Of a stretch of 28,451 bases of DNA, positions 1,255 through 28,451 are shown one piece after another. Source of the stretch: Candidatus Woesearchaeota archaeon (GTDB lineage Archaea; Nanobdellota; Nanobdellia; Pacearchaeales; GW2011-AR1). The stretch is from NCBI GenBank assembly GCA_964397665.1, contig CAYNJW010000004.1:6660-35110 (forward strand), in the 5' to 3' direction. Made by a program: the position numbers and the translations under genes. Below the pieces are notes generated by a model. That model saw only the letters and a list, made by a program, of their open reading frames with translations. It searched no databases and was not told where the DNA came from. How positions within the stretch are numbered: position 1 is the stretch's first letter; each line of letters opens with the position of its first letter.

Positions 1255-2781
1255 ATGAAATATACAATTTTAATAGGTGGTCGAGCAGGACAAGGAATAA
1301 ATAAAATTTCTGAGATAATAACTGAAATTGTAAATTCTTTTGGATATTACATCTTCAATTATCGCGATTATCCTTCATTAATTCGTGGAGGGCATAATTT
1401 TAATGTTTTAACAATTTCTGATAAACAAATAGGTTCGATAGAAAAAAAAATAGATGTATTAATTGCTATGGATGAAAAAACAATTAAATTACATAAAGAA
1501 AAACTAAAAACTAAATCTTGGTTAATTACTCCAAAAGGTTTTGAAAAATTGGGAAGAGATTTGAATATTGCTCAAGCAACTGCTTTTCTTAAAATTCTTG
1601 GAATTCCAAAAAAATTAATCTTAAAAGAGGTTACAAAAAACTTTCAACATCAGGGAGCAAAAAACGCCGTTGAAGATGGTTATAATTCTCAAAAGGAGAA
1701 TATTAAACTAAAAAAACTAAATAATAAAATTTCAATTTTAACAGGTTCACAAGCAATAGCAAAAGGTGCAATAAACTCAAAAGTAGATAGGTATATTGCA
1801 TATCCAATGACTCCATCTACAGGAGTATTACATGAAATGGCAAACAAACAGTTTAACAATAACTTTGTAGTATTTCAACCAGAAAATGAAATCGCAGTTG
1901 TAAACATGGCACTAGGATCGAGTTTTGCAGGTGCAAGAACCATGATTGGAACTGCAGGCGGAGGATTTGACCTAATGACTGAAGGATTAAGTTTTCAGGG
2001 AATGTCTGAAGTCCCTTTAGTAGTTTATCTAGCCTCAAGACCTGGACCTGGTTCTGGAGTCCCAACATATTCTACACAATCTGATGTAGATATTGCGTTA
2101 AGAGCTGGACATGGTGAATTTCCAAGAGTTGTAATCGCACCAGGAGACCCAATTGAAGCTATTGAAAAAACAAATGAGTCCTTTTATCTTACTGAAAAAT
2201 TTAATACTCTTTCAATAATTTTAGCGGATAAACATCTTGCAGAAAGCCAATATTCCTCTCACAAAAAAGAAAATAAAAATATAAAAATTTCTCAAAATAG
2301 AAACATTCCAGGAAAAACTATTGTAAAATCTTCATCTTATGAACATAAAATAGATGGAAATACAACAGAAGATGCAAAAATAACAAAAATAAATGCAGAT
2401 AATAGAATTAAAAAATATAAAGAAATAAAGAAAGAATGTGCAAAATTTGAGATGGTAAAAATTCATGGTAAAAAAAATTCAAAAAATTTAATTATAGGAT
2501 TTGGTTCAACAAAAAACCAAATTTTAGATGCAATTGAAAATCTTGACTGCAAATTTCTTCAAGTAATCTATCTAAAACCAATGTCTAATAAAATAAAAAC
2601 AGAAATGAAAAAAGCAAAAAAGATTATTTTAATAGAACAGAATAGCACTGGACAACTTGGAAGACTCTTAAGAGAAAAAACTGGAATTTCAATACTTGAA
2701 AAAAATAGAATTTTAAAATATGATGGGAGACCATTTTATTTAGAAGAATTAAAATCAGAAATTAAAAAAAGATTAAAATGA
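1255..2781 (+). CDS. 2-oxoacid:ferredoxin oxidoreductase, fused gamma-alpha subunit
   Basis: A gamma-type N-terminal domain (GGRAGQGINK...YPSLIRGGHNFN) is followed by an alpha/POR_N-type domain (GSQAIAKGAI...YIAYPMTPSTG) and a domain-II-like C-terminus. The stop overlaps the next start (ATGA at 2778-2781). Confidence 0.85.
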   Translation: MKYTILIGGRAGQGINKISEIITEIVNSFGYYIFNYRDYPSLIRGGHNFNVLTISDKQIGSIEKKIDVLIAMDEKTIKLHKEKLKTKSWLITPKGFEKLGRDLNIAQATAFLKILGIPKKLILKEVTKNFQHQGAKNAVEDGYNSQKENIKLKKLNNKISILTGSQAIAKGAINSKVDRYIAYPMTPSTGVLHEMANKQFNNNFVVFQPENEIAVVNMALGSSFAGARTMIGTAGGGFDLMTEGLSFQGMSEVPLVVYLASRPGPGSGVPTYSTQSDVDIALRAGHGEFPRVVIAPGDPIEAIEKTNESFYLTEKFNTLSIILADKHLAESQYSSHKKENKNIKISQNRNIPGKTIVKSSSYEHKIDGNTTEDAKITKINADNRIKKYKEIKKECAKFEMVKIHGKKNSKNLIIGFGSTKNQILDAIENLDCKFLQVIYLKPMSNKIKTEMKKAKKIILIEQNSTGQLGRLLREKTGISILEKNRILKYDGRPFYLEELKSEIKKRLK

Positions 2782-3602
2782 AAAAAACAACAAAAGAAAA
2801 ATTAAGAACAAATGAAGAAATGACTTGGTGTCCTGGATGCCCAAATTATATGATTTTAGAAAGTGTAAAAACTGCACTATCCAAACTTATTAATTCTAAG
2901 AAATATAAACAAACAGATTTTGCAATGGCTTCAGATATTGGATGTAATTCAAAAATATTTGATTATCTGAATATTTCAGGTATTTATGGACTTCATGGAA
3001 GGTCACTTCCAACAGCAATAGGAATAAAACTTGGAAATCCAAAACTAAAAGTTTTATCTTTTACCGGAGATGGTGCAATTTATTCTGAAGGAATTTCCCA
3101 TTTAATTCCTGCATTCAGATACAATGTTGATATGACACTATTAGTACATGATAATCAAGCCTTCTCACTAACTACTGGACAACCAACAGCAACTTCCCAA
3201 CAAGGATACAGTTCAAAAGCAGACCCACGAGGAGTAATGGATCAACCATTAAATCCGATAAAGTTAGCTTTAGCATGTAATGCTACATTTATAGCAAGAA
3301 CAAATGCTAAAGATATTAAACATACTGCTGAAATTATTGAAAAAGCAATTAAACATCGAGGTTTCTCATATATTGAAATTATGCAAGATTGCTTAATATT
3401 TAATAAAAAAATAAACAACAAAGACTCAATAATGTATAAAATAAAAGATAACAAAAATTTAAAAATTGCAGAAAAACTTGCAAATGAATATGACTATAAC
3501 TCTAAAAAAGGAAAAATACCTTTGGGAGTAATTTACCAAACTAATAAACCAACACTAACTGAAAAAAGACCACTCCTAAAAAGGAAACTAAATAATAAAT
3601 GA
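2778..3602 (+). CDS. 2-oxoacid:ferredoxin oxidoreductase, beta (TPP-binding) subunit
   Basis: Contains the WCPGCPNY Cys motif, DIGCNS, and the TPP-binding GDGAIYSEG motif. It overlaps both neighbouring genes by ATGA. Confidence 0.85.
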   Translation: MKKTTKEKLRTNEEMTWCPGCPNYMILESVKTALSKLINSKKYKQTDFAMASDIGCNSKIFDYLNISGIYGLHGRSLPTAIGIKLGNPKLKVLSFTGDGAIYSEGISHLIPAFRYNVDMTLLVHDNQAFSLTTGQPTATSQQGYSSKADPRGVMDQPLNPIKLALACNATFIARTNAKDIKHTAEIIEKAIKHRGFSYIEIMQDCLIFNKKINNKDSIMYKIKDNKNLKIAEKLANEYDYNSKKGKIPLGVIYQTNKPTLTEKRPLLKRKLNNK

Positions 3603-4447
3603 ATAAAAATAATTTAACATTAATTGGGGAAAAATTAAATTCTAAAACCCCAATGTTAATAATGCTTGCTCCAGCATTTCTAACAGATTTTAAATTTCCA
3701 GACATAATTCATCAATTAAAAAAATTAGGATTTGATAAAGTTACTGAAATAACCTTTGGAGCAAAAATAGTAAATAAAGAATACCATAAACTATTAAAAA
3801 AAACAAATAGATTAGTAATCTCTTCTCCATGTCCTGGAATAGTCCATACAATCTCTCACAACTTCCCCAAACTTAAAAAAAATTTAGCAAAAATTGACAG
3901 CCCTGTTGTTGCTATGTCAAAAATCTGTAAAAAAGAATATCCTAATCATGAAATAACTTTCCTATCTCCTTGTGAATTTAAAAAAATAGAAGCATCAAAA
4001 ACAAAAACAATTGACTGGGTAATCGATTTTGAACAACTTAAAAAACTTATCAAAGAAAAGAATATAAAAAAACCGAAATTTAAAAAGAAAAACCTAACAT
4101 TTGATAAATTCTACAATGATTATACAAAAATCTATCCACTTTCTGGAGGACTTTCTCAGACTGCACAAATCAACAGAATACTAAAAAAGAAGGAAATTAA
4201 AGTTATAGATGGCATTCTTAATGTAATGGAATTTATGAAAAATCCTGACCCAAAAATCAAATTTGTAGATTGTTTATTCTGTGATGGTGGTTGTATTGGT
4301 GGACCTCATACAACAAAAAAAATTTCAATTGATAAAAAAAGTAAAATTCTTAAACAATATCTTAAACAATCTAAAAGAAAAAGTATTCCAGAAAATAGAA
4401 AAGGATTACTAAAAAGAGCAAAAAATTTAAAATTTACAAAACAATAA
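3599..4447 (+). CDS. [FeFe]-hydrogenase H-domain-like protein (minimal, 282 aa, no accessory cluster domains)
   Basis: Aligns by eye to the clostridial HydA H-domain. MLAPAF...LGFDKVTEITFGA matches QMAPAV...LGFDKIFDINFGA. L1-like SSPCPG has Cys78 at 3830-3832, L2-like SPCEFKKIE has Cys125 at 3971-3973, and L3-like FCDGGCIGGPH has Cys228/Cys232 at 4280-4294. Confidence 0.75.
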   Translation: MNKNNLTLIGEKLNSKTPMLIMLAPAFLTDFKFPDIIHQLKKLGFDKVTEITFGAKIVNKEYHKLLKKTNRLVISSPCPGIVHTISHNFPKLKKNLAKIDSPVVAMSKICKKEYPNHEITFLSPCEFKKIEASKTKTIDWVIDFEQLKKLIKEKNIKKPKFKKKNLTFDKFYNDYTKIYPLSGGLSQTAQINRILKKKEIKVIDGILNVMEFMKNPDPKIKFVDCLFCDGGCIGGPHTTKKISIDKKSKILKQYLKQSKRKSIPENRKGLLKRAKNLKFTKQ

Positions 4448-6409: not shown

Positions 6410-6838
6410 ATGAACAAAACACAAATAACAAATGCAGATCTTGTAGAGAGATTTCCACAAATAAGGAATAAAACTACTGCTATGAAAGCTGTAATGGATG
6501 TTCTGAAAGAAAGTCTAGAACCTGCATATCAGGGATTAGAAGTAAGACCCTATTTTGAAAATAGGGATATTGGCATATTAATGCCTTTATATGCTCCTGA
6601 ATTGAAAGGTTACCATTTAATTCAGAAAACAAAACTAGACCAACCAGAAAGAACTATCAAAAAAAGTCTTTTCGGACTTATAAAAACACAAGTAACTAAA
6701 ACACATGACAAGAGAAATATCGCCTATGGAGGTATAGAATCTTCTGCTCTTGACGTTCTTGTATATGAAAGCGAAGTTTTACAAGCATGTGAAGAAATTG
6801 CTAGAAAAACACAAGGTGGTCTTAGGGTTAGATTATAA
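6410..6838 (+). CDS. hypothetical protein (142 aa), sole cargo ORF of the insert
   Basis: The ORF track begins at the ATG at 6344, but only the ATG at 6410 has GGAGG at proper spacing, and no TATA box sits 22 nt upstream of 6344. I recognise no motif in it. Confidence 0.6.
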   Translation: MNKTQITNADLVERFPQIRNKTTAMKAVMDVLKESLEPAYQGLEVRPYFENRDIGILMPLYAPELKGYHLIQKTKLDQPERTIKKSLFGLIKTQVTKTHDKRNIAYGGIESSALDVLVYESEVLQACEEIARKTQGGLRVRL

Positions 6839-19079: not shown

Positions 19080-20807
19080 CTAACTGTTAAATTTTTTAAG
19101 AGACTTATTCAAATACTCAAAATATTCTAAATCGCTAGAATTTGCCATTTTCTCAACAATTAACTCTGGTGTTGAATGTGCTAATCTTCCCAAAACGGGA
19201 TTATGATCTACGATTAAATTAAAATCCTTATCTAAACCTTTAGCTTCAATCCCATCAATTCTTGCACCTTTTGGTAAAACTTCTTTTATTTCATAACCAA
19301 GATGGGTTGCGATTACTAAAAAACAATTCTTATTTAAAAAATAATCTGCAGTTGTAGCAATTATCTTACCTGCTACTCCTGGTTCAGTTACTGCTTCAAT
19401 CTCATCTGCTAAAATCAACGTTTGACTACCTGGTTTTATTGTTGACAACTGCGTAAGGAGATTTTCAAAAGCCCCTTTATTTGCTACACCTTTGTTTTTA
19501 GCAAAATAATACACTTCAGTAAATTGTGGAGTTTTGAAAGAACCGTTGATTGGAAGACCGAGTTGAAAAAGACTTATAGATTGAATTAAATGTTCTAAAA
19601 GAGTAGTTTTACCACCTGAATTTGCCCCAGTTAAAATAGAACATTTATTTTCCATATCTAATCTGAACGAAATAGGTTGAGCGTTATCTAAAAAATAATT
19701 TTTAGAATTTTCTAAAATTAACTCTTCAGATTTACAGGGATAAGATTCTGTTAATTCAAGATATTTTGAAATCCCACCTAAAAAATCAAGAACAATTAAA
19801 AGACTTGATAATCTAGATAATTTTTCAGGAATTAATTTTATTAAACTTGAGTTTAATTTTACTTCTTCAGCTAAATCTGTAAACTCATTTGAACTCTGTC
19901 TTCTAATTAAATCTTCTAATTCTTTTTCATCTATTGAAACAGGGATAGAAATATTAAAAATATGTGAGGGGATTTTACTATCTTGTATAATTTTATTAAT
20001 CATTTTTTGAAAATCTTCTGGAAGTTTTCCTTCAGCCATAATTTTCATTAAAGATCCCCCAGAAATTGTAAAATCTTTTAATTTTTCTTCAAGTATAATA
20101 TTCATCTCATCTAAAGTCTCTTCAACTTTTTCTCTAGTAATAATCTTTGTTGAAGTTTCAACAAAAAAAGAAAATAACGACGACAATTCTTCCGTAATCT
20201 TAAATATCTCACCAGTAGTTATGTTCTTTCCTAAAACTTCTAAATTTTCTTTCCAACCGGAAAGTTTCTCTAAATATCTCTCAAGATAAATATCCTCAAC
20301 ATCCTTAATAAAAACTGTTTGTGATAATGTCTCCAAAGATCTTTGAAAATTATCACAATCAATTACTTGGACAATATCGTATCTTTCTAGTTCTGCTAAA
20401 TCTTGTTCAGAAATTAACAATTTTACTGTACACCCAAATTCTTTCAATTGCATAAAAATGGATTCATCCTCTGTAACAGCAATTACCTCATACTTTGGAG
20501 ACCAATTAATTCTTGGAACTTTCAATTCTTCTAAAAAATCTGTACGAATAATTCCTTTAATCTGCTTAAAAAATTCTTGACGATAATTTAACAAATCAAG
20601 ATTAGAGGTAAAAGGAATAACATGCCAAAGATTGGATGTTTCAGAAAAATTAAACTCTGAAGAAATCTTGCTTAAAAGACGATTATGGACTACTTTTGCA
20701 TCTCTTGTTTTATAAATTGAATCTGCATTCTTACTAATTGAAGTCTTTACAGAACTAAAAGGTGATAGCCCTTGATCAACAATAAACTTGCAAAATTCTT
20801 CTTTCAT
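19080..20807 (-). CDS. MutS-related ABC ATPase (MutS domain V only; no mismatch-binding or Smr domain seen)
   Basis: Has Walker A in LTGANSGGKTTLLEH and Walker B in LILADEIEAVTEPG. The track start at 20864 is TTG; the first ATG is at 20807. Confidence 0.75.
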   Translation of the reverse strand: MKEEFCKFIVDQGLSPFSSVKTSISKNADSIYKTRDAKVVHNRLLSKISSEFNFSETSNLWHVIPFTSNLDLLNYRQEFFKQIKGIIRTDFLEELKVPRINWSPKYEVIAVTEDESIFMQLKEFGCTVKLLISEQDLAELERYDIVQVIDCDNFQRSLETLSQTVFIKDVEDIYLERYLEKLSGWKENLEVLGKNITTGEIFKITEELSSLFSFFVETSTKIITREKVEETLDEMNIILEEKLKDFTISGGSLMKIMAEGKLPEDFQKMINKIIQDSKIPSHIFNISIPVSIDEKELEDLIRRQSSNEFTDLAEEVKLNSSLIKLIPEKLSRLSSLLIVLDFLGGISKYLELTESYPCKSEELILENSKNYFLDNAQPISFRLDMENKCSILTGANSGGKTTLLEHLIQSISLFQLGLPINGSFKTPQFTEVYYFAKNKGVANKGAFENLLTQLSTIKPGSQTLILADEIEAVTEPGVAGKIIATTADYFLNKNCFLVIATHLGYEIKEVLPKGARIDGIEAKGLDKDFNLIVDHNPVLGRLAHSTPELIVEKMANSSDLEYFEYLNKSLKKFNS

Positions 20808-20867
20808 AAATTTAACTTGGTTAATGAGTTTAAAATGTTTTATATATTCAAAAAGACAATTCAATAC

Positions 20868-21128: not shown

Positions 21129-21217
21129 TCATTCATTCGTTTAAACAAATTTTAAAACTTCTTAGTTTTATTAAAATTAAAAAGAAACCTAACAAGATAC
21201 TTTTTCTGGGAAAATTA

Positions 21218-21300
21218 TGAGAGCAGGAGGATTCGAACCCCCGTAGACATAAGCCAACAGATTTTGAGTCTGCCCCGTTTGACCACTCCGGCATGCTCTC
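21218..21300 (-). tRNA. tRNA-Leu (anticodon CAA)
   Basis: Cloverleaf folded by hand. The acceptor stem is GAGAGCA/TGCTCTC, the anticodon loop is CTCAAAA, the T arm is GGGGG-TTCGAAT-CCTCC, and there is a long variable arm. No CCA is encoded. Confidence 0.9.
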
Positions 21301-21470
21301 ATAAATTTATAGACGCACTTCAACTTAAAAAGGTTTTTATATCAATAACTTTTTAGAAGTCTAATCTAAAAGGATACTTAAAAAATTCCTTTAATAAAAA
21401 GAAATCTTTTTTCAAGAAAAAATTGCTTAAGGTAAAAAAATAAATTTAAACAAACACTAAATAAATTAAA

Positions 21471-24795: not shown

Positions 24796-24845
24796 TTAAA
24801 CAAAACAATACACTTTTTAAATCGTTAATCATGTATTTTATTATT

Positions 24846-24916
24846 GGGCACATAGTTTAATGGTAAAATGGCCGGCTCCAACCCGGCAGCTTGGGGTTCG
24901 ATTCCCTATGTGCTCA
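24846..24916 (+). tRNA. tRNA-Trp (anticodon CCA), intronless
   Basis: The acceptor stem is GGGCACA/TGTGCTC, the anticodon arm is GCCGG-CTCCAAC-CCGGC, and the T arm is TGGGG-TTCGATT-CCCTA. TTTTTAAA (24814-24821) lies 25 nt upstream of the 5' end. Confidence 0.9.
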
Positions 24917-24950
24917 TAATCACATTATCTCTTTCTAAAATATAGTTAAT

Positions 24951-25168: not shown

Positions 25169-25214
25169 ATAAAATTAGTAATCTTTAAAAGCAAAAATTA
25201 ACACATAATAATAT

Positions 25215-25290
25215 AGCGAGGTGGAGCAGTCTGGTCAGCTCGCAAGGCCCATAACCTTGAGGTCGCATGGTTCAAATCCTGCCCTCGCTA
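25215..25290 (+). tRNA. tRNA-Met (anticodon CAT), probably the initiator
   Basis: The A1:U72 acceptor end (AGCGAGG/CCTCGCT) is typical of archaeal initiators. The anticodon loop is CCCATAA. The T arm GCA(T)GG-TTCAAAT-CCTGC needs a bulged T. CTTTAAAA (25183-25190) lies 25 nt upstream. tRNA-Ile2(CAU) is not formally excluded. Confidence 0.8.
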
Positions 25291-25403
25291 TAAAACTTTT
25301 TAAGAGTTTATTTAGATTAAAATAGTTAAACTAAAATCTTCAAATAAAGAATGTAGAAAATATTGTAGATTAATCTTATAAACTAATAATCTTTTAACAA
25401 ACT

Positions 25404-26057
25404 ATGAAACTAATTGGAATAGATGATGCAGGACGTGGACCAGTCTTAGGACCTATGGTTTTAGCAGGAGTTTTAATAGAAGATTCTGAACAATCAAAAC
25501 TTGCAGAACAAGGAGCAAAAGACTCAAAACTTTTGACACCAACTAAAAGAAAGATACTTGGTAATAAATTTAAACAAGAATATAAACACCATATTGAAAT
25601 TTCTAAACCAATAGAAATTGACGAATCCACTAATTTAAATGATCTTGAAGCAATTAAAACAGCAATGATTATCAATAAATTAGCAAATGAAACTACTGAA
25701 GAAATTACAGCAATAATTGATTGCCCATCTGTAAACACTGAAACTTGGGGAAACTTTGTAAAAAATCTAATTAAAGATAAAGATAGAATAACAATTAAAG
25801 CCGAACATAAAGCAGATTTTAATCACCCTGTTGTTTCTGCTGCATCAATTATAGCAAAAGAAAAAAGAGAGGAAGAAATGTTAAAATTAAGAATTGAACT
25901 AAAACAAGACTTTGGTTCAGGATACCCTGCAGACCCAAAAACTAAAGAGTTCATAAAAAAAAATTATGATAATGAAAAATTTAAAAGTATAATCAGGCAT
26001 TCATGGAGTACTGTAAAAAAATTAAAAAAAGCAAAGGCACAAGAAACTTTATTCTAA
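25404..26057 (+). CDS. rnhB: ribonuclease HII
   Basis: The N-terminus LIGIDDAGRGPVLGPMVLAGV and later DSK, ASIIAK and SGYPAD are typical of archaeal RNase HII. Confidence 0.9.
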   Translation: MKLIGIDDAGRGPVLGPMVLAGVLIEDSEQSKLAEQGAKDSKLLTPTKRKILGNKFKQEYKHHIEISKPIEIDESTNLNDLEAIKTAMIINKLANETTEEITAIIDCPSVNTETWGNFVKNLIKDKDRITIKAEHKADFNHPVVSAASIIAKEKREEEMLKLRIELKQDFGSGYPADPKTKEFIKKNYDNEKFKSIIRHSWSTVKKLKKAKAQETLF

Positions 26058-26164: not shown

Positions 26165-28451
26165 ATGCCACACGTAAAAAAAATTATAATGCAGGGGTTT
26201 AAATCATTTGCTAGAAAAACTGAAATTCCGTTCGAAGAAGGTATGAATGTTATTGTTGGTCCAAATGGTTCTGGAAAATCAAATATCACAGATGCATTAT
26301 GTTTTGTTCTTGGAAGAGTTTCTATAAAATCGATTAGAGCTGCAAAAGCTGCAAATCTTATTTTCTCTGGAAATAAACAATTTAAAAGCTCTTTGGAAGC
26401 TTCAGTAGAATTAATCTTTGATAACTCAGATAAAACTTTTGCAATAGATAAAAATGAAATCTCAATAAAAAGAGTAGTAAGAAAGAGTGGACAATCAGTT
26501 TATAAGATAAATAATGAAACAAAAACTAGGCAAGAACTTTTAGAACTTCTTGCGCAAGGAGGAATAGATCCACATGGATTTAATATTGTTCTTCAAGGAG
26601 AAATAGCTTCACTTATAAAAATAAATGCTGATGAAAGAAGGAAAATAATTGAGGAAGTAGCTGGGATTTCAATTTATGAAACTAGAAAAATTAAATCTTT
26701 GAAAGAGCTTGAAAAAACTGAAGAAAAACTAAAAGAAGTTTCAACAATACTAAAAGAAAAAAATAGTTATCTTAAAAATCTAGAAAAGGAAAGACAAGAA
26801 GTTTTATCTTATCAAAAATTAGAAGAAACAATAAAAAAATGCGAAGGAACAATTTTAGATAATGAAATACGAACTAAGAAAAAGGAACTTAAAGAGAAAG
26901 AAGAAAAAGAAGAAAAAGAACTTAGAAAACTGAAAGAGATAAAGGAAAAAGTTGCAAATAAAAATGAGATAATCAACCAATTTGAAGAAAAGATTATTAA
27001 AATAAATAAAAAAATCCAAACATCTACTTCTCAAGAACAAGAAACAATAAACAAAGACTTATCTGAATTAAAAGCAAAATTAGCCGGTTTAAGTGTGAAA
27101 AAAGAAAATTTTGAAAGAAGATTAGAACAGAATAATGAAAAAGAAAAAAATATGAGAAATAAAATTGAAAGCTATACTGAAAAACTTTCACAAATGGAAA
27201 AATCTACTCCAGAAATAAAACAGCAACAACAAGAATTAAAAAAAATTCAAGATAAATTTGATAAATTAGAAAAAGAACGAAGAAAGTTTTATCAAATTAA
27301 ATCTGAAGTTTCGACATTAGAAAATCAAAAAGAAGAAAAAATGGAAAAACTAATTGAAGAAAAAACAGAATTAGAATTAATTGAAAAAACAATAACCCAG
27401 TTATTTAATGAAATTAAATATGAAAAATCTCCTGAGAAAGCAAAAAACTTAATTCTTGAAACAAAAAAAGAAATAAGAAAAACAATTGAAGAAATAGAAA
27501 CACTAACAGATAAAATCCTTGAACTTGAAAAAACAAATGCAATAGTTGAACAAACAATCTCTAGAGAAGAAAAACTTAAGGGAGACATTATAACTCTTAA
27601 AACATGCCCATTATGTAAAAATGAAATAACTAAAGAACATATTGAACAGGTAATAAATCGGGCAAATGAAATAATAATAAAAACAAAAGAAGGTAAAGAA
27701 AAAAATAACGAAATAAAAGAAAAAGCAAAAATAAGAATCAAAAAATTAAAAGAAATTCTTGAAAAACTCGAATTAAAAATCCGTGAAATTGAACTAGATA
27801 TAATAAAAATAGAAAAATCTGAAGAAAAAAAAGAACAAATAAAAAAATTAATGATTTCTAGAGATCACAATAAAACAATCATTGATGGACTAAATCTAAG
27901 ATATAAAGATATTAAAAAAGAATATGAAAGACTAAAAAATATTGAAGAAATTTATGATGAAACTAGAATTAGAATGCAAGAGTTATCCTTTTCAGATATT
28001 GATATGGATTCTGAAATATCTATGAAACAAATGGAACTTGAAAAGATAAAAATTGAAATAAAGGCAATTGAAAGAGATTCAGAAGATTCAAAAATAGAAT
28101 TAAAAAAAATTATTAAAGATCTTGAAGAAATTTTAATTAAATCAAAGAAAAAAGAAAAAGAACAAGAAGAAATTTATAAACAATTCCAAAAATTATTTGA
28201 AGAAAAAAATGAATTTCAAGATCAACAAAAAGGAATTGAAACAATGGTTATTGGTTTTCAACATGAGATGAAAAATCATGAAATAAATATTGGAAATCTA
28301 AATATCGAAAAAGCAAAATTAAATGCCCAATTAGAAACTTTATCAAATGAACTTGAGAAATATAAAGGAATTGAATTCATGAAAGGACCAATAATACAAA
28401 TTAAAGAAAAGTTAAATAAAGCTAAACTAAGATTTTCCTCTTTTGGGAATA
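26165..28451 (+). CDS. SMC-family ATPase, 5'-partial (runs off the window end); SMC-type head with a Rad50-like CxxC hook motif
   Basis: Not in the ORF track because it has no stop in the window. I translated it by hand: open from the ATG at 26165 for 762 codons. It contains GFKSF, Walker A GPNGSGKSNITDALCFVLG (26258-26281), IVLQGEI, ERRKIIEEVAGIS and a long K/E-rich coiled coil, with CPLC at codons 481-484 (27605-27616). CTTAAAAA (26136-26143) ends 22 nt upstream. Confidence 0.85.
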   Translation, partial: MPHVKKIIMQGFKSFARKTEIPFEEGMNVIVGPNGSGKSNITDALCFVLGRVSIKSIRAAKAANLIFSGNKQFKSSLEASVELIFDNSDKTFAIDKNEISIKRVVRKSGQSVYKINNETKTRQELLELLAQGGIDPHGFNIVLQGEIASLIKINADERRKIIEEVAGISIYETRKIKSLKELEKTEEKLKEVSTILKEKNSYLKNLEKERQEVLSYQKLEETIKKCEGTILDNEIRTKKKELKEKEEKEEKELRKLKEIKEKVANKNEIINQFEEKIIKINKKIQTSTSQEQETINKDLSELKAKLAGLSVKKENFERRLEQNNEKEKNMRNKIESYTEKLSQMEKSTPEIKQQQQELKKIQDKFDKLEKERRKFYQIKSEVSTLENQKEEKMEKLIEEKTELELIEKTITQLFNEIKYEKSPEKAKNLILETKKEIRKTIEEIETLTDKILELEKTNAIVEQTISREEKLKGDIITLKTCPLCKNEITKEHIEQVINRANEIIIKTKEGKEKNNEIKEKAKIRIKKLKEILEKLELKIREIELDIIKIEKSEEKKEQIKKLMISRDHNKTIIDGLNLRYKDIKKEYERLKNIEEIYDETRIRMQELSFSDIDMDSEISMKQMELEKIKIEIKAIERDSEDSKIELKKIIKDLEEILIKSKKKEKEQEEIYKQFQKLFEEKNEFQDQQKGIETMVIGFQHEMKNHEINIGNLNIEKAKLNAQLETLSNELEKYKGIEFMKGPIIQIKEKLNKAKLRFSSFGN

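Follow-up and report, generated by a model that had tools for sequence, protein, structure and literature searches.

A probable chromosomal Smc protein of Pacearchaeota with a Rad50-type zinc hook in place of the hinge

The hinge is considered a defining part of SMC proteins, important for their function, and is credited with dimerisation, DNA binding and possibly the provision of a DNA gate. To our knowledge, only laboratory chimeras, made in Bacillus subtilis and fission yeast, show that an unrelated dimerising module can stand in for it. In the B. subtilis chimera, termed Smc(Zh), the hinge of Smc was swapped for the zinc hook of Pyrococcus furiosus Rad50, and cells grow normally given a suitable arm length (Buermann et al. 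2017, PMC5344682); the reciprocal chimera, Rad50 with a MukB hinge, works in fission yeast (PMC6969161). Described here is an smc-like gene at the end of a 28,451-nucleotide stretch of archaeal DNA (contig CAYNJW010000004.1 of assembly GCA_964397665.1, forward-strand positions 6,660 to 35,110), termed the window below. As in Smc(Zh), its product joins a Smc head and a Smc arm to a Rad50-type hook, an architecture that can work, since B. subtilis Smc with a Rad50 hook supports growth (PMC5344682). Smc(Zh) is man-made, whereas the Pacearchaeota protein is natural, order-wide and evolutionarily stable. It is a natural, lineage-wide counterpart of the engineered chimera, and the natural form appears to be new: searches of the open-access full-text literature turned up no Smc with a hook in nature, and one may be mentioned elsewhere.

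Other SMC-like proteins without a hinge have been described. The archaea-specific SMC-related proteins (ASRP; ClsN/coalescin and Sph1/2, model NF045487) resemble the window protein in being ATPases of the SMC superfamily in which a CxxC hook takes the position of the hinge. They are only ~590 amino acids long, however, and constitute a separate family (PMC9389158); the window protein is far closer to Smc. The hinge-less SMCs of marine Actinobacteria, reported in 2025, similarly have an SMC-type head and arm and no hinge domain (PMC12153180). These are bacterial, are explicitly without CxxC, and are nearer to the ~800-amino-acid hookless Pacearchaeota variants discussed below than to the protein of the window. 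Hook-SMCs necessarily escaped earlier surveys in which SMC proteins were gathered by way of the hinge (PMC5344682, methods).

The gene is an open frame of 762 codons at window positions 26165-28451 (+), which runs past the window end. A database search provided the full-length protein, P0001, of 954 amino acids, with 100% identity over the 762 residues, and Pfam SMC_N (PF02463) extends over residues 4-945 of P0001 at 4.8e-57, the head being split between both ends, with Walker A in the N-terminal part and the signature motif and Walker B in the C-terminal one. The frame displays the motifs GFKSF (residues 11-15), GPNGSGKSNITDALCFVLG (32-50), IVLQGEI (141-147), ERRKIIEEVAGISIYE (157-172) and LKTCPLCKNEITKEH (478-492), the last with CPLC at codons 481-484, or nucleotides 27605-27616. 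An earlier reading of the window letters without database searches, referred to here as the sequence-only reading, had pointed to the same motifs and to the CPLC within codons 478-492, and these are all in place. It had also likened the window-terminal ...LRFSSFGN to the LGxVN motif of SMC proteins; in P0001 this segment continues into INLRALEVY and is the family motif LGNVNMRALEVY, which precedes the C-terminal head.

The head is of the SMC type, with intact ATPase motifs, and is not that of Rad50. The N-terminal half (residues 1-168; 26165-26668, +) matches the Pyrococcus Smc head (1xew/4i99, E 1e-45), is modelled by AlphaFold2 (AF2) as a beta/alpha head and carries the invariant residues K38, R58 and Q144. 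In a PDB sequence search the best match is Pyrococcus Smc at 7e-56, followed by cohesin and condensin SMCs at ~1e-33, with Rad50 at 5e-8. The NCBIfam models give the full protein 513 bits (513.3) for TIGR02169 and 478 bits (478.3) for TIGR02168, as against 43-84 bits for the Rad50 models, 84 (83.7) for ASRP and 48 for RecN; the head is thus closer to Smc than to Rad50, RecN, ASRP or MukB, no other model exceeding 84 bits. Rad50 model cutoffs are 700-1087 bits and the ASRP cutoff is 300, such that the protein has neither a Rad50-type head nor membership of ASRP. The sequence-only reading had called the head SMC rather than Rad50, and both the bit scores (513 versus 84) and the PDB values bear this out; its question as to whether the protein belongs to a named archaeal SMC-related family is answered in the negative for ASRP/ClsN. 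The Smc equivalog cutoffs are also missed (513.3 against 729.4 for TIGR02169, 478.3 against 567.35 for TIGR02168), and the equivalog profile match covers only positions 1-455 plus the C-terminal part.

In 62 aligned members the Walker A, Q-loop, signature motif, Walker B, D-loop and H-loop are all kept. Invariant are GPNGSGKSN, LSGGEK and FDEIDAALD, and among single residues K38, Q144, S867-E870, D894/E895 and H926. The Walker A/P-loop GPNGSGKSN itself (residues 32-40; 26258-26284, +) is unchanged in 62/62 and is the site of an intein in some relatives. The top Foldseek matches of the full AF2 model, which has a mean predicted local distance difference test score (pLDDT) of 76.8, are heads of condensin Smc4/Smc2, Smc5/6 and Pyrococcus Smc.

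The protein lacks a hinge. Pfam SMC_hinge (PF06470) has no match in the 762-residue fragment or, even at E<=1, in five full-length members. The nearest hinge-bearing relatives, 35-42% identical overall, match PF06470 at 1e-30 to 1e-33 and serve as a positive control, so the absence is not a problem of sensitivity. A hinge hidden Markov model (HMM) was also built locally from hinge-bearing relatives and applied to 269 collected sequences: 101 have a hinge, 151 have a mid-protein CPxC, 17 have neither and none has both. Hinge and CPxC are therefore mutually exclusive in the collected set. In the alignment with the Woesearchaeota Smc, the block at ~residue 490-690 of the latter has no counterpart and is replaced by ~25 residues containing the CPxC; the window protein is ~205 amino acids shorter overall, each arm being ~30 shorter. 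The sequence-only reading had found no hinge in the visible residues and had left room for one beyond residue 762. Pfam, the hinge HMM, the AF2 model and the alignment agree that there is none in the full 954 amino acids.

What the AF2 model predicts between the two halves of the head is a long antiparallel coiled coil with an arm length of ~290-310 residues and no globular middle domain. Helices are predicted at residues 169-342, 352-416 and 423-477, then at 490-589, 593-608, 615-732 and 743-758, with the C-terminal strand reaching to ~780; the apex is a 12-residue turn at 478-489. The N-terminal strand of the arm (residues 169-477) is encoded at 26669-27595 (+), and the visible part of the C-terminal strand (residues 490-762), ending in the FGN(INLRALEVY) motif, at 27632-28450 (+). 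A break in the N-terminal helix at residues 343-351 (27191-27217, +), non-helical and with pLDDT <50, pairs with a predicted break in the C-terminal helix at residues 609-614 (27989-28006, +) and is a candidate elbow.

The hook LKTCPLCKNEITKEH (residues 478-492; 27596-27640, +) lies at the predicted apex of this coiled coil. The sequence-only reading had expected it at the midpoint of a protein of ~950-1000 residues; since the full protein has 954, the CxxC is 4 residues off the midpoint. Exactly one CxxC is present in 120/120 close homologues, always as CP[LIVTM]C; in more distant members, with identity as low as 39%, the aligned position can also read CPFC or CPKC (CP[LIVTMFK]C overall). C481, P482 and C484 never vary and H492 is retained in 94%, in a flanking coiled coil that is conserved at 50-60% per column. 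Of the 101 hinge-bearing relatives, just 1 contains a CxxC anywhere. A single, aligned CxxC in 151/151 family sequences is thus not a matter of chance.

Similarity of this motif to the Rad50 hook is found in several ways. The best PDB matches of the hook profile are the Rad50 zinc hooks 1L8D (E 0.002) and 6ZFF; CPlC is aligned to the CPVC of the Rad50 hook, as is the His 8 residues past the second Cys. The spacing CPxC-x7-H equals that of P. furiosus Rad50, and the hydrophobic/Thr pattern between CPxC and His is shared as well. In 24 of 30 hook segments Pfam Rad50_zn_hook (PF04423) ranks first among the families, with a best E of 2e-4. The AF2 model of the 100-residue tip (pLDDT 95.6) is a helix-loop-helix hairpin whose loop contains the cysteines, and its best PDB fold match is 1L8D chain B, at a template modelling (TM) score of 0.84/0.83 and a root-mean-square deviation of 2.2 A; 7ZQY, the Rad50 hook of C. 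thermophilum, and 6ZFF are within the top seven. Sequence profile, curated HMM and fold search agree on the Rad50 hook family, and the CxxC hook that characterises Rad50/SbcC is present here in sequence and in predicted fold. A search with a single 80-amino-acid hook segment returned from the PDB solely CxxC matches of the BRCA1/RING type; a profile search was needed, and this gave the Rad50 hooks.

Taken together, the product of the gene is probably the chromosomal Smc of a Pacearchaeota (DPANN) archaeon, its hinge of ~200 residues having given way to a short Rad50-type hook. The suggestion that the CxxC is a Rad50-like hook has held, with 1L8D best by both profile and predicted fold and the motif invariant in 151/151 orthologues. 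Three outcomes named beforehand as contrary to the sequence-only reading, a hinge further downstream, a head placed within Rad50 and an unconserved CxxC, did not occur. The resemblance to Rad50 (P. furiosus; 1L8D/6ZFF, PF04423) is confined to the tip; head and arms are those of Smc, and no Mre11 is found nearby. With the prokaryotic Smc (Pyrococcus Smc; TIGR02169/TIGR02168) the protein shares the sequence and fold of the head, the ATPase motifs, the LGxVN...EY motif close to the head, an antiparallel arm of ~300 residues and the genomic position of the Woesearchaeota smc, and its nearest relatives there are hinge-bearing archaeal Smc proteins at 35-40% identity. It differs in that the ~200-residue hinge (PF06470) is absent, ~25 residues with CPxC being found instead, and in its scores below the equivalog cutoffs.

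The family is sharply delimited. The best 120 clusters at 90% identity are nearly all 946-958 amino acids long and 51-66% identical to the query; where names are given, these are SMC of 'Candidatus Pacearchaeota', 'Nanoarchaeota' or 'archaeon'. Together with 31 more distant representatives, these 120 close homologues make up the set of 151 sequences, with identity down to 39%. In an exhaustive search of 1.84 billion representatives, proteins of 943-1023 amino acids align end to end and carry the CPxC; after a sharp break come proteins of ~1050-1200 amino acids that bear a hinge and align in two stretches only. Among the matches listed from a contig scan with the family profile, canonical bacterial and archaeal SMCs predominate and only L006, from Nanoarchaeota, is of the hook type. 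Public annotation of hook-bearing smc genes is either 'chromosome segregation protein SMC' or 'AAA family ATPase'.

Inteins are found in some of the relatives. The hook-type P0126 (1483 amino acids) and P0128 (1479) hold an intein of ~530 amino acids with a LAGLIDADG homing-endonuclease domain, inserted just past the Walker A region, where query residue ~38 aligns to residue ~570. Hinge-type relatives of ~1660-1800 amino acids, e.g., P0153 and P0157, are probably intein-bearing as well.

Phylogeny and locus point to the origin of the gene. In a neighbour-joining tree of the concatenated head halves (124 sequences, 364 columns), all hook proteins form one clade with 93.5% bootstrap, nested among hinge-bearing SMCs. 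Named members of the clade are Pacearchaeota and the adjoining hinge-bearing sequences are Woesearchaeota; of the relatives looked up by name, none that bears a hinge is named Pacearchaeota. Directly upstream of the smc-like gene is rnhB, encoding RNase HII (25404-26057, +; Pfam PF01351, 1.7e-41), as the sequence-only reading had it. RNase HII is upstream of the hook-SMC not only in the window but also in L001, L002, L005 (a 39%-identical member) and L086, and in the Woesearchaeota locus L087, where smc is hinge-bearing, a 47% identical RNase HII is located 2.4 kb upstream. Downstream of smc, Pacearchaeota and Woesearchaeota loci alike have a convergent gene (-) for a surface protein with a signal peptide, repeat core and transmembrane segment, at 12943-13893 in L086, 13183-14127 in L002, 15809-16996 in L001 and 11070-12371 in L087. 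The protein is secreted and C-terminally anchored, with the conserved tail ...KKDKPIEEVETSYY, and has only a faint Pfam match, to FixG_C. A small DUF7557 gene follows it in the Pacearchaeota loci. The contig of the near-identical P0002 stops 1.4 kb beyond the gene.

A single clade beside the Woesearchaeota SMCs, at the same locus, argues that this is the lineage's own smc with its hinge swapped in place. The simplest reading is that the hinge of the resident smc gene was replaced a single time, at the stem of the Pacearchaeota. The protein of the window is the Pacearchaeota orthologue of canonical Smc, and not a previously named archaeal SMC-related family. Since the CPxC-x7-H spacing is common to archaeal Rad50, the hook may have been captured from Rad50 rather than have arisen by convergence.

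Two cysteines per chain are insufficient for a complete tetrahedral zinc site; two chains would therefore supply four, as in Rad50. In the proposed working, the protein would fold back such that the SMC ATPase head is followed by an arm of ~300 residues with the CPxC in a hairpin at its tip. Two protomers, with four cysteines and one shared Zn2+, would then form a constitutive tip-to-tip dimer in the role of the hinge, and the heads would come together and part with ATP in the manner of Smc-ScpAB. We infer that the protein binds zinc, dimerises through the hook, has a kleisin partner and takes part in organising the chromosome. That this protein may be the lineage's only SMC is indicated only indirectly, by the phylogeny and the shared locus; another SMC with a hinge, or a Rad50, may be present in the same cells. 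A fuller proposal, which is tentative and which we place somewhat short of evenly likely, is that a single Smc, dimerised by a zinc hook from archaeal Rad50, organises the Pacearchaeota chromosome, and that some descendants lost the distal arm together with the hook.

Several observations weigh against these proposals. No ScpA, ScpB or other kleisin gene adjoins smc in five Pacearchaeota loci, nor is a kleisin adjacent in the Woesearchaeota hinge-Smc loci. ScpA searches seeded from the archaeal smc-scpA locus L008, with a single sequence and with a profile, gave no match named Pacearchaeota, and in 130 kb of Pacearchaeota DNA a local ScpA HMM found only the SMC coiled coil, with high bias scores that are compositional. 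Because a kleisin was found neither near the gene nor in these 130 kb, a tripartite ring is at most putative. The hook scores are also modest: all Pfam Rad50_zn_hook scores, over the 30 segments, are under the gathering score, and the matches to 1L8D reach E 0.002 by sequence and 8e-3 by fold, as expected where the motif is short, ~20 residues on a coiled coil. The models are of monomers, and zinc binding and the dimer are proposed from sequence and predicted fold. Lastly, the hook is not indispensable in every member, since four clade members of ~800 amino acids are without hook or hinge. The conserved downstream open reading frame of 316 amino acids was considered as a kleisin and is ruled out by its signal peptide, C-terminal membrane anchor and S-layer-like repeat.

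The four hookless proteins, P0139 (804 amino acids), P0141 (801), P0142 (779) and P0144 (781), are inside the hook clade and have neither hinge nor CxxC. They lack ~residues 350-610 in query numbering and have ~100 residues of helix-like sequence instead. What is gone is everything distal to the AF2 helix breaks at 343-351 and 609-614, and these breaks coincide with the edges of the absent segment. The five members of the P0139 cluster come from several sources, on contigs of up to 40 kb, and the hookless variants are hence not assembly artefacts. SMC homologues of ~740 amino acids without a hinge HMM match and without CxxC are also found in Saccharibacteria/Patescibacteria (L044 6933-9179, L061 10001-12232, L079 10001-12217); these may be hinge-less SMCs, or SMCs with a very divergent hinge, in another reduced-genome lineage.

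Other explanations have to be set beside a hook-bearing Smc. The hookless relatives count in favour of the view that the CPxC is kept for another reason than zinc binding between subunits, for example for a redox-sensitive disulfide or as an intramolecular hairpin cap, with dimerisation through arms or heads only. In these four proteins, without the cysteines and without a hinge, another route to dimerisation must exist, and the marine Actinobacteria provide further SMCs with neither hinge nor CxxC (PMC12153180). Set against this are the invariance of the motif in 151 sequences amid a coiled coil of 50-60% conservation, the His at +8 and flanking pattern of the Rad50 hook, and a predicted fold that superposes on 1L8D. 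Two cysteines alone cannot form a tetrahedral zinc site, and the arrangement seen is exactly the solution of Rad50. A role confined to redox or capping is accordingly improbable.

The protein could also be a Rad50/SbcC-type ATPase of double-strand-break repair, with an SMC-like head and partnered by Mre11, rather than a chromosome organiser. The apical CxxC with Rad50 spacing, the length of 954 amino acids, which is near that of archaeal Rad50 (~880), and the failure to find a kleisin in the loci and searches made would all fit. The head does not: the Rad50 equivalog models remain at 43-84 bits, far under their cutoffs, against 478-513 for the SMC models, and the PDB values differ in the same direction. 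Mre11, NurA and HerA genes are absent from the window and from L001, L002, L005 and L086, and the clade is nested among hinge-bearing Smc proteins and retains their locus. A repair ATPase of the Rad50 type is thus very improbable. The protein might instead be an extra SMC-like paralogue, a compartment factor such as ASRP/ClsN or a defence ATPase, present beside a canonical hinge-bearing Smc. Zinc hooks do occur in other archaeal SMC-related proteins (ClsN/ASRP; PMC9389158), and SMC content was judged here from contigs. Yet ASRPs are much shorter, and the protein reaches 84 of the 300 bits that their model requires; the gene is amid housekeeping genes (rnhB, TBP, DNA ligase, tRNAs) at the position of the Woesearchaeota smc; and the tree fits the expected relationship of Woesearchaeota and Pacearchaeota, with no looked-up hinge-bearing relative named Pacearchaeota. 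A paralogue of this kind is unlikely.

The window is AT-rich (~27% G+C), and its remaining genes are housekeeping genes of archaea: TBP, ATP-dependent DNA ligase, RNase HII, a beta-CASP RNase, pyruvate:ferredoxin oxidoreductase and a class I aminoacyl-tRNA synthetase of the Ile/Leu/Val/Met type. There are tRNA genes for Leu-CAA (21217-21301, -), Trp-CCA (24845-24917, +) and Met-CAT (25214-25291, +), the latter two in the stretch that separates the TBP gene from rnhB, shortly before the smc locus. At 1255-4447 (+), genes for two subunits of pyruvate/2-oxoacid:ferredoxin oxidoreductase precede an open reading frame of 282 amino acids, stops and starts overlapping. The sole match of this frame is to the C-terminal domain of the large subunit of [FeFe]-hydrogenase (PF02906, 2.4e-37); such a short hydrogenase-like protein is unusual for a DPANN genome. 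A 594-amino-acid open reading frame at 19080-20864 (-), with a TTG start as listed, has no confident family, AAA_14 being matched at 9e-4 only, and its counterpart in the sister contig L086 (575 amino acids) has no Pfam family. Entirely within the SMC coiled-coil coding region, at 27325-27741 (-), is an antisense open reading frame of 138 amino acids, most likely a by-product of the A/G-rich composition of Lys/Glu codons and not a gene.

A hook-tipped Smc at the ancestral locus across an archaeal order, with identities down to 39%, would represent independent evolutionary evidence on the hinge. It would imply that the tip must provide stable dimerisation, and that arm and head carry the remaining mechanism. 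For structural biologists who study SMC arms, the compact and simple tip would be of use. Annotation rules that depend on domains, such as PF06470 and the TIGR02169 cutoffs, will miss or mislabel hook-smc genes. Should the lineage indeed have a single hook-Smc with hookless descendants, it would constitute a natural experiment in which neither the hinge fold nor hinge-DNA contacts are needed for core SMC function.

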